From the UHGV virus genome UHGV-0869939: a stretch of 25,864 nt of DNA. One strand, given 5' to 3'. Made by a program: the position numbers and the translations under genes. The notes beneath the pieces were generated by a model, which had not been told where the DNA came from, searched no databases, and was given only the letters and a program-made list of their open reading frames with translations. This document shows positions 22,162 to 23,078 of this stretch, piece after piece. The DNA comes from a virus. Every line of letters starts with the position of its first letter. Position 1 is the first letter of the stretch.

Positions 22162-22674
22162 CTATGCAGGCTTTTTGGATTTGTACGAATAATCCCACGG
22201 ATAAACATTTCTACTAAGTGGAGCTGTATTCGTTCGTTCATGAAATAATTTTGTGAAATTCAATACGGAATCCATCCAAACTTTTGCGTTAGCTTTGGTG
22301 TGTGCGGGCGGGTCCCAATAAGCTAGTAAGGCTGCATCTCTTATTTCATTGACTGCATATATGAGATATGCGTTACTGGTTGGTTTTGGCCTGTAATTTC
22401 CTTGTTCATCAATCAATCCATATGACCACTCATCCCAACACTGTTCAGTACATGAGTATGAATATGATGCATATTCACCAATATTGACATGAACCTTTCT
22501 GAGATGGAAGCCTAATACTTCGTCTGGTCTTTCAAAAAGAGTATCTTTTCCCAGATCAGGATGATGACCATGACGCCAGTGTTGTTTAAAAGCATCTTTT
22601 AGCGAAATCAGAAAGTCATCAGTTTTAAACTCACCAGTAGGTATAACCTTCCCGCTATACTCACTCAAAAACAT
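22162..22674 (-). CDS. Hypothetical protein (170 aa), second gene of an operator-controlled two-gene operon
   Basis: Strong AAGGAAGAGG RBS; ATG lies inside the last codons of the upstream gene (14-nt overlap); AT-rich; His-rich HWRHGHH segment; no family recognised. Confidence 0.55.
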   Translation of the reverse strand: MFLSEYSGKVIPTGEFKTDDFLISLKDAFKQHWRHGHHPDLGKDTLFERPDEVLGFHLRKVHVNIGEYASYSYSCTEQCWDEWSYGLIDEQGNYRPKPTSNAYLIYAVNEIRDAALLAYWDPPAHTKANAKVWMDSVLNFTKLFHERTNTAPLSRNVYPWDYSYKSKKPA

Positions 22675-22987
22675 CGAATTCCTCTTCCTTCATATGCGTT
22701 TCTAATGAGTTAAGCTGGCGGAAAGATATCTCTTTTGATTCTGCAGATGAGAGCTTTTTTATCCGCTTGATATTCTTTGTGATAGGAATAGACATTGTAT
22801 GCACATCAGCGGATGCTCTTGGCTTTGTGCTGATAAAAATATGGCGCAATGCCGCATTTTCACTATTGAACGAGCCAATAGCTGATTTACGTGCTACAAC
22901 CTTACCAGTAAAAATACGACTCTTGCTACGCTTTGCATGAGTTCCGCTTCTTACCGGACCTCTCATCACGAATCCAAGTTTTGTCAT
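22661..22987 (-). CDS. Hypothetical basic protein (108 aa), first gene of the two-gene operon
   Basis: GGAG RBS 7 nt before the ATG; putative promoter (-35 TTGCAG, -10 TACTAT) whose -10 abuts the TTACC-N5-GGTAA site; Lys/Arg-rich. Confidence 0.55.
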   Translation of the reverse strand: MTKLGFVMRGPVRSGTHAKRSKSRIFTGKVVARKSAIGSFNSENAALRHIFISTKPRASADVHTMSIPITKNIKRIKKLSSAESKEISFRQLNSLETHMKEEEFDVFE

Positions 22988-23029
22988 CTTTAATCTCCGG
23001 TAAGTTACAGGTATAAAATAAAAACAGGT

Positions 23030-23044
23030 TTACCTTTAAGGTAA
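23030..23044. promoter_or_regulatory. TTACC-N5-GGTAA palindromic site (copy 3 of 6)
   Basis: TTACCTTTAAGGTAA, 43 bp upstream of the 22987 start, immediately after a TACTAT -10-like hexamer on the minus strand. Confidence 0.6.
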
Positions 23045-23078
23045 TAGTACGCTATTCACCCCCGGTCTGCAATCTGTA

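Follow-up and report, generated by a model that had tools for sequence, protein, structure and literature searches.

Positions 22162-23060 of UHGV virus genome UHGV-0869939, a stretch of 25,864 nucleotides (nt) referred to here as the window, raise the question of what a compact two-gene phage operon behind an operator-bearing promoter might do and what sets its transcription. An earlier note on this DNA had described the two products, a basic protein of 108 amino acids (aa), here A108, and a His-rich protein of 170 aa, here B170, as assignable to no family, and had guessed at a toxin-antitoxin, abortive-infection or exclusion pair. From sequence comparison, B170 can be assigned to the YafO toxin family as a full-length, enlarged homologue, A108 is its proposed cognate partner, and the palindrome in front of the pair is, judging by its distribution, the immunity operator of the epsilon15-type phage group. 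Our favored reading, which we hold with a probability of roughly 0.55, is that the operon is a type II toxin-antitoxin-like cargo of the YafO type, gated by the repressor of an epsilon15-like (Uetakevirus) prophage. The family assignment of the toxin is ordinary and already stands in the RefSeq annotation; the novelty lies in the partner family, in the larger size of the toxin, in its proposed wiring to the repressor and in the slot that houses the pair.

The downstream protein and its partner

All genes and promoter elements of the cassette lie on the minus strand of the window (Table 1). Coordinates and composition bear out the layout given in the earlier note, with two overlapping genes, the second ATG falling within the last codons of the first, and GC contents of 0.41 (A108) and 0.39 (B170) compared with 0.485 for the window. 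A co-transcribed, coupled pair behind an operator-bearing promoter is likewise supported, and the gene overlap implies translational coupling; that it also fixes the stoichiometry, as had been claimed, does not follow, since an overlap speaks for coupling only. Prophages of Serratia and Citrobacter and viral contigs of IMG/VR show the same 14-nt overlap.

Searched on its own against Pfam, B170 spans the whole PF13957 (YafO_toxin) model with 19.7 bits (E = 9.5e-4). The model is matched by 11 of 13 close relatives of B170, and a 181-aa paralogue passes the Pfam gathering score for YafO. A profile-profile comparison with hhalign, in which 46 phage-type sequences were set against 28 canonical YafO proteins of 132-134 aa, gave a probability of 98.9% (E = 2.8e-17) over 121 columns, running from residue 4 to 145 of the phage-type proteins and from residue 2 to 129 of canonical YafO. 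Residues G36, G42-K-D44, R59, H62, Y106 and H125 are common to B170 and Escherichia coli YafO, and the name given to B170 by NCBI PGAP is 'type II toxin-antitoxin system YafO family toxin'. The remote-homology check that the earlier note had proposed thus leads to YafO for B170 and to no known family for A108, so that the statement that neither protein could be assigned stands for the upstream protein and falls for the downstream one.

E. coli YafO is described as an endoribonuclease whose activity depends on the ribosome: it attaches to the 50S subunit, and its cuts in mRNA fall 11-13 nt downstream of start codons (PMC7781912). By homology, B170 should likewise be a ribosome-dependent mRNA endonuclease, with the same binding to the ribosome and the same mode of mRNA cleavage. 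Like yafN-yafO of the E. coli dinB-yafN-yafO-yafP operon, the pair has its partner gene upstream, in a layout where the genes overlap or abut, and a toxin homologous to YafO over the whole length. Unlike YafO, with which it shares about 21% identity, B170 is 38 aa longer, with a Cys/Trp-rich insertion carrying an invariant C..CW..W pattern and a C-terminal tail of about 25 residues, both absent from YafO. Further, A108-B170 is found on a prophage whereas YafN-YafO belongs to the chromosomal backbone, and A108 is not a Phd/YefM-type protein as YafN is.

A search of PDB sequences with the YafO-like profile found no related solved structure, the sole match being a spurious designed repeat. Structure prediction, also proposed in the earlier note, gave models of low confidence for both proteins, with a confident helix at 81-107 of A108. 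The best structural matches of the low-confidence B170 model, by two methods, are HigB toxins such as Vibrio cholerae HigB2 (PDB 5mje), with Foldseek matches to the PDB that are not significant. The RelE/HigB-type interferases resemble YafO in that YafO, too, is a ribosome-dependent endoribonuclease (PMC7781912); they differ from B170 in having no sequence similarity to it and in that the toxin gene comes first in higBA.

A108 belongs to PHROG 5933 (phrog_5933), whose listed function is unknown, and matched no family in Pfam, NCBIfam or PADLOC and no sequence in the PDB. An exhaustive profile search of 1.84e9 representatives returned 14 relatives, none with a known domain, and all convincing relatives measure 104-116 aa; a scan of species-representative genomes found a single locus, in Serratia aquatilis. 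Within the family, a conserved N-terminus (MTKLGFVMRG...KRRK, 55% mean identity) and a conserved C-terminus (SxELSFRMLNSLExRMKEEEFDxFE, 60%) enclose a hypervariable middle (17%). The AF2 model, of low confidence overall, has a disordered N-terminus and weak strands ahead of the confident helix. Homology of A108 to YafN was considered and rejected: BLASTP against YafN returned nothing, and hhalign of the A108 family against seven YafN sequences gave a probability of 0.07%.

What ties A108 to B170 is its position. The A108 family sits upstream of the 170-aa toxin gene in every locus examined, including the Serratia and Citrobacter prophages and 21 IMG/VR contigs, and the overlap is kept in all of them save two frameshifted read-level assemblies. 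A108 has diverged about twice as fast as the toxin (identities of 34-49% versus 69-79%). More generally, long YafO-like genes in IMG/VR viral sequences have an overlapping upstream open reading frame (ORF) at 59 of 59 loci. Their three subfamilies, with toxins of 170, 168 and 181 aa, are each paired with an upstream partner family found with no other, and these partner families are mutually unrelated. Such exclusivity is what a cognate neutralizing partner would predict, and the pair shares with type II systems in general the adjacent, co-transcribed genes and strictly co-occurring partners. The toxin-antitoxin guess fits, the downstream protein being a YafO homologue with an upstream partner in every locus examined.

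Two paralogous pairs of the same phage group offer a direct comparison, gp45/gp44 of TL-2011b and a 147-aa plus 168-aa pair in E. coli IMT16316. Both have the same toxin type (33% and 47% identity to B170, respectively), an operator-bearing slot and an overlapping upstream partner; unlike A108-B170, their partners, of 59 aa and about 147 aa, are unrelated to A108 in sequence and length, and the 168-aa type occupies a second slot, between ant and the tailspike gene. We infer that A108 is the cognate antitoxin or partner of B170. It would be made first, with B170 translationally coupled to it, and would neutralize B170 by means of two elements, a conserved strand-like motif at the N-terminus and the helix at the C-terminus. 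The disorder of the partner, its conserved C-terminal helix and its faster divergence lend indirect support to neutralization by direct binding of a labile antitoxin. If this is true, an uncharacterized antitoxin family and two sister families would be added to those that accompany YafO toxins.

We also observed that A108 (22661-22700), YafN, TL-2011b gp45 and the 147-aa partner of IMT16316 share acidic, aromatic C-terminal tails with a terminal Glu; the tails of these four otherwise unrelated partner families read ...DDDFNDFKE, ...EEEFDVFE, ...ENYEFVCVAE and ...QELYDDAE. This tail may be a common toxin-docking motif, one too short to score statistically.

The same proteins could be read without any toxin-antitoxin relationship. 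B170 would then be a YafO-fold protein that the phage has recruited for its lytic phase, be it to process selected mRNAs, to shut off the host or to counter defences, and A108 its cofactor or targeting subunit. Several features speak for this account: the wiring of the operon resembles that of lytic or early genes, the conserved C..CW..W insertion and the tail are additions to YafO, the partners are unrelated to known antitoxins, and A108, with its basic character and partial disorder, resembles many RNA- or ribosome-binding peptides. Against it, an upstream partner, a downstream toxin and an overlap make up the canonical type II layout, found in yafN-yafO as well, and a one-to-one partner specificity over three subfamilies is consistent with a neutralizing partner. 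The occurrence of truncated toxin genes beside intact partners (locus L077) also argues against this account, which we consider decidedly unlikely.

The operator in front of the pair

The earlier note had described a -10 hexamer, TACTAT, abutting a TTACC-N5-GGTAA site, and this is confirmed: the final T of the hexamer, at 23044, is the first base of the palindrome. A generic promoter scan did not list the cassette promoter, because only 7 of its 12 hexamer positions fit the consensus; we nevertheless accept it because the block of -35, -10 and operator is conserved before five different cargoes. That the operator would be the operon's own site, the reading implied by the earlier note, has to be given up. 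The motif occurs six times exactly in the window and eight times with at most one mismatch, compared with 0.54 expected, and none of 100 shuffles reached eight. Three of the window's operators directly follow a -10-like hexamer, as TACTAT/TACC before the small terminase gene (2485-2505) and before A108, and as TATCAT/TACC before ant; epsilon15 also has the TACTAT/TACC fusion.

A complete prophage with the identical pair has 11 exact copies of the operator, some of them at OR-like and OL-like positions. A PL-like position has two of them, and one belongs to a three-site array at the repressor gene. Two more fall between the replication genes and the early gene that follows; the terminase, A108 and the tailspike gene are each preceded by one, and the intergenic region between tRNA and portal genes holds one; the remaining two lie where ant and a 242-aa gene diverge. 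The array lies between the gene for a 194-aa helix-turn-helix (HTH) repressor and the divergent gene at the cro position, and its other two sites carry two mismatches and one mismatch. TL-2011b has 10 exact copies in the same layout, and in the epsilon15 reference record (NC_004775.2) ATTACC-N5-GGTAAT sites are annotated as 'protein_bind: repressor, lysogeny'. At all 21 loci of the 170-aa type an operator with at most one mismatch abuts the -10 hexamer. Because of these phage-wide copies, the array at the repressor gene and the epsilon15 annotation, we take the palindrome to be the immunity operator of the epsilon15-type phage group. The cassette would thus belong to the regulon of such a phage: its site abuts the -10 hexamer, and in a prophage with an identical cassette the array at the repressor gene is built from the same motif. 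Our literature search found no paper describing repressor binding at these sites.

These observations bear directly on whether the operon is a classical autoregulated type II module, in which A108, alone or together with B170, would bind TTACC-N5-GGTAA and repress its own promoter. A palindrome that overlaps the promoter is indeed what toxin-antitoxin operators look like, and across genera, loci that keep the N-terminus of A108 keep the operator half-sites as well. However, an identical promoter and operator stand before unrelated cargo that lacks A108 and before the unrelated 59-aa partner of TL-2011b. The motif is also phage-wide, including the repressor-cro region, and is an annotated repressor site in epsilon15, a phage without this cassette. 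Further, no recognizable DNA-binding domain was found in A108 by family searches, in the AF2 model or by the PDB sequence search. The sole palindrome of the cassette being the phage-wide repressor site, there is no antitoxin-specific operator here, which is a further difference from YafN-YafO; autoregulation of this kind is highly improbable, and a private operator of A108 was rejected on the same observations.

Rather, we hypothesize that the pair has no private operator and that the prophage repressor, binding at 23030-23044, sets its transcription. In a stable lysogen transcription would be low or off: little expression is expected because the operator spans about -7 to +8 of a weak promoter, in the same design as the terminase promoter, and repressor control as predicted from sequence argues against strong expression in lysogens. 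Once the repressor is absent or inactivated, the pair would be derepressed jointly with ant, the terminase and the other operator-bearing units. The triggers could be induction, antirepressor action or infection of a non-immune cell, and the toxin would then curb translation once its partner is outnumbered or degraded. If true, this would be a toxin-antitoxin-like module that has delegated its transcription to the immunity repressor instead of its own antitoxin, linking toxin release to the loss of lysogenic immunity.

Such an arrangement has relatives on two sides. Phage genes of the kil type, such as lambda kil and kilR of Rac, damage the host and stay silent under the immunity repressor until induction releases them, and silencing by the immunity repressor is what we propose for A108-B170; unlike it, they encode single small proteins that have no co-encoded neutralizer and act on cell division, not on mRNA. 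The yafO operon is SOS-inducible, LexA acting at the dinB promoter for yafNO (PMC7781912), so that in both YafO systems transcription would be tied to a repressor lost on DNA damage or induction, LexA there and presumably the prophage repressor here. The 194-aa prophage repressor (WP_000836291.1; L014, 6446-7030) carries an HTH_3 domain at its C-terminus, perhaps with another HTH at the N-terminus, and no S24 peptidase domain was found in it. An Ant or Bro-N antirepressor gene is carried by the phage (a second one in TL-2011b), behind an operator where examined, and prophage induction probably proceeds via antirepressors. From the operator positions, structural and late transcription units also seem to be directly repressor-controlled.

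A cargo slot in the prophage backbone

We compared positions 22100-23110 of the window with four other loci (L002, L017, L018 and L019). In all five variants the upstream backbone, consisting of the ant terminator, the promoter TTGCAG-17-TACTAT and the operator, is conserved up to the last operator base, and the cargo starts immediately after it. The cargoes are A108 with B170; a 59-aa protein with a 181-aa YafO-like protein; a hydrophobic pair of 62 and 110 aa; a 210-aa protein; and a DUF4760 protein. All but A108-B170 close with a GCCCGC..GCGGGC-T6 terminator, which precedes the conserved gene for a 53-aa signal-peptide protein. In the window (22140-22175, minus strand) this terminator stem is degenerate and overlaid by the last B170 codons, and transcription may therefore read through into the 53-aa gene, which has a possible promoter of its own (TTGACG-16-TATAGA). 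As far as sequence comparison can tell, promoter and operator are phage backbone and the gene pair is swappable cargo, housed in a fixed promoter-operator-terminator slot.

The A108-B170 pair is present in 69 of 5426 complete E. coli genomes, with an identity of 99.6-100% among the matches listed. The flanks alone are found in 464 of the 5426 (about 8.5%), and at least five cargo types occur between the same flanks across these 464 genomes. Neither A108 and B170 nor their paralogues or the alternative cargoes matched PADLOC-DB 2.0. A literature search on YafO in prophages, Uetakevirus hotspots, the protein accessions and the PHROG identifiers found no study of this cassette. If the slot is what it appears to be, Uetakevirus prophages hold a swappable promoter-operator-terminator position whose cargoes are all of unknown function, a compact target for screening of phage accessory genes.

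A slot of this kind is where a defence function has to be weighed. Leaky transcription in the lysogen could maintain an A108-B170 complex; another phage that stops host transcription or degrades A108 would free the RNase, which would abort the infection, and the repressor site would only trim expression. This account is supported by the fact that RNases of toxin-antitoxin systems are known as effectors of abortive infection. The hypervariability of the slot is likewise typical of prophage defence hotspots, and the low GC content of the cargo fits too. On the other side, the operator overlies a weak promoter in the same design as at the terminase promoter, which has to stay silent in a lysogen, and the PADLOC search was negative for the pair and for the alternative cargoes. 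We regard lysogen-expressed defence as possible, though on the unlikely side.

Several observations weigh against a repressor-gated toxin-antitoxin cargo, the reading that we prefer. Swappable cargo at a fixed prophage position is usual for lysogen-expressed genes, as in defence hotspots, and sits uneasily with tight repression, and the immunity region of the window's own prophage falls outside the window. The single-sequence Pfam score of B170 is below the gathering threshold of 25. A108 has no similarity to YafN or to any known antitoxin fold, and is strongly basic (isoelectric point, pI, 10.6) where YafN is acidic (pI 5.5). Finally, in two single-run assemblies (L089, 1138-1980, and L090, 1501-2331) 1-nt deletions, one of them in an A-run, frameshift the A108 homologue and leave the 170-aa toxin gene intact. 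If real, these frameshifts could mean that A108 is dispensable at the prevailing expression and that the toxin is harmless when repressed; we made no use of the two assemblies as evidence, a real mutation and an assembly error being indistinguishable in them.

A bolder version of repressor gating is a 'dead-man switch', which we consider unlikely. The enlarged YafO RNases would be silenced by the immunity repressor instead of by antitoxin autoregulation, each with an unrelated, newly evolved basic partner, and would fire only on removal of the repressor. The C-terminal tails shared by YafN and all three phage partner families would then mark one toxin-docking motif set on different scaffolds. 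Removal by the antirepressor of a superinfecting phage or by induction would lead to translation shutoff, and the module would serve either as an abortive-infection device that guards the repressor or as a timed lytic shutoff of the host. If true, loss of immunity would be coupled to the shutoff of translation.

Between ant and the tailspike gene there is another variable slot, which also has operator copies in front of it. Its content is a 226-aa ORF in the window and, in E. coli IMT16316 (L001, 8098-9037), the YafO-like pair of 147 and 168 aa mentioned above, giving two YafO-like modules in that prophage.

Setting of the window

The window is the late half of a podovirus prophage of the epsilon15/phiV10/TL-2011b type (Uetakevirus). 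It contains the small and large terminase genes, a tRNA gene, the genes for portal, capsid and internal virion proteins and for a 1129-aa DUF919 protein, an accessory region and then the tailspike gene. In E. coli PS_131_S11 the same prophage type, with the identical pair, is integrated beside guaA.

Table 1. Positions of the cassette, the operator-type sites and the neighboring features in the window
Feature	Position	Strand	Remarks
A108	22661..22987	-	108 aa; pI 10.6; 21 K+R
B170	22162..22674	-	170 aa; pI 6.4; 8 His (4.7%), 6 Trp
A108/B170 overlap	22661..22674	-	ATGTTTTTGAGTGA; 14 nt; B170 ATG within final A108 codons
A108 Shine-Dalgarno	22995-22998	-	GGAG
B170 Shine-Dalgarno	22680-22684	-	GAGGA
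-35 hexamer	23067..23072	-	TTGCAG; direct sequence reading; conserved before five different cargoes
-10 hexamer	23044..23049	-	TACTAT; 17-nt spacer from -35; direct sequence reading
Cassette operator	23030..23044	.	TTACCTTAAAGGTAA; perfect 7-1-7 palindrome TTACCTT-A-AAGGTAA; spans about -7 to +8 of the promoter
Tandem operators	2491..2523	+	2491-2505 and 2509-2523; one exact, one with 1 mismatch; right after TACTAT, just upstream of small-terminase start
Operator-type site	5579-5593		same terminase-portal intergenic region as the tRNA gene
Two operators	24045..24152	.	24045-24059 and 24138-24152; divergent region between ant and 226-aa ORF
Operator-type site	25256-25270
Further operator-type site	25488-25502		1 mismatch; within tailspike ORF
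ant terminator hairpin	23093..23108	-	GGCACAGGGATGTGCC, then T-run; conserved backbone; insulates cassette promoter
ant (AntA-type antirepressor)	23117..23773	-	upstream neighbor of cassette; Pfam AntA, 4.2e-26
C4 antisense RNA	23823-23907	-	Rfam, 61 bits; in leader between ant promoter and ant start
isrK Hfq-binding RNA	23932-24008	-	Rfam, 68 bits; in leader between ant promoter and ant start
ant promoter			TTGATT-18-TATCAT; promoter-scan match; own operator 24045-24059
226-aa ORF	24173-24853	+	second slot; N-terminal membrane segment; weak Cys-rich Stc1-like match
53-aa signal-peptide protein	21919..22080	-	conserved downstream flank of slot
283-aa signal-peptide protein	21038-21889	+	GC 0.36-0.40; follows DUF919 injection protein
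tRNA gene	5183-5256	-	between terminase and portal operons; tRNA-Arg by annotation in related genomes

With its C4 and isrK elements, the leader of ant looks like the RNA control of P1/P7-type immI, placed on top of repressor control of the antirepressor. On the other side of the cassette, the 283-aa protein had no family match; in Serratia relatives the equivalent place is taken by a Rap1a-domain gene, and the site may be a third cargo position.

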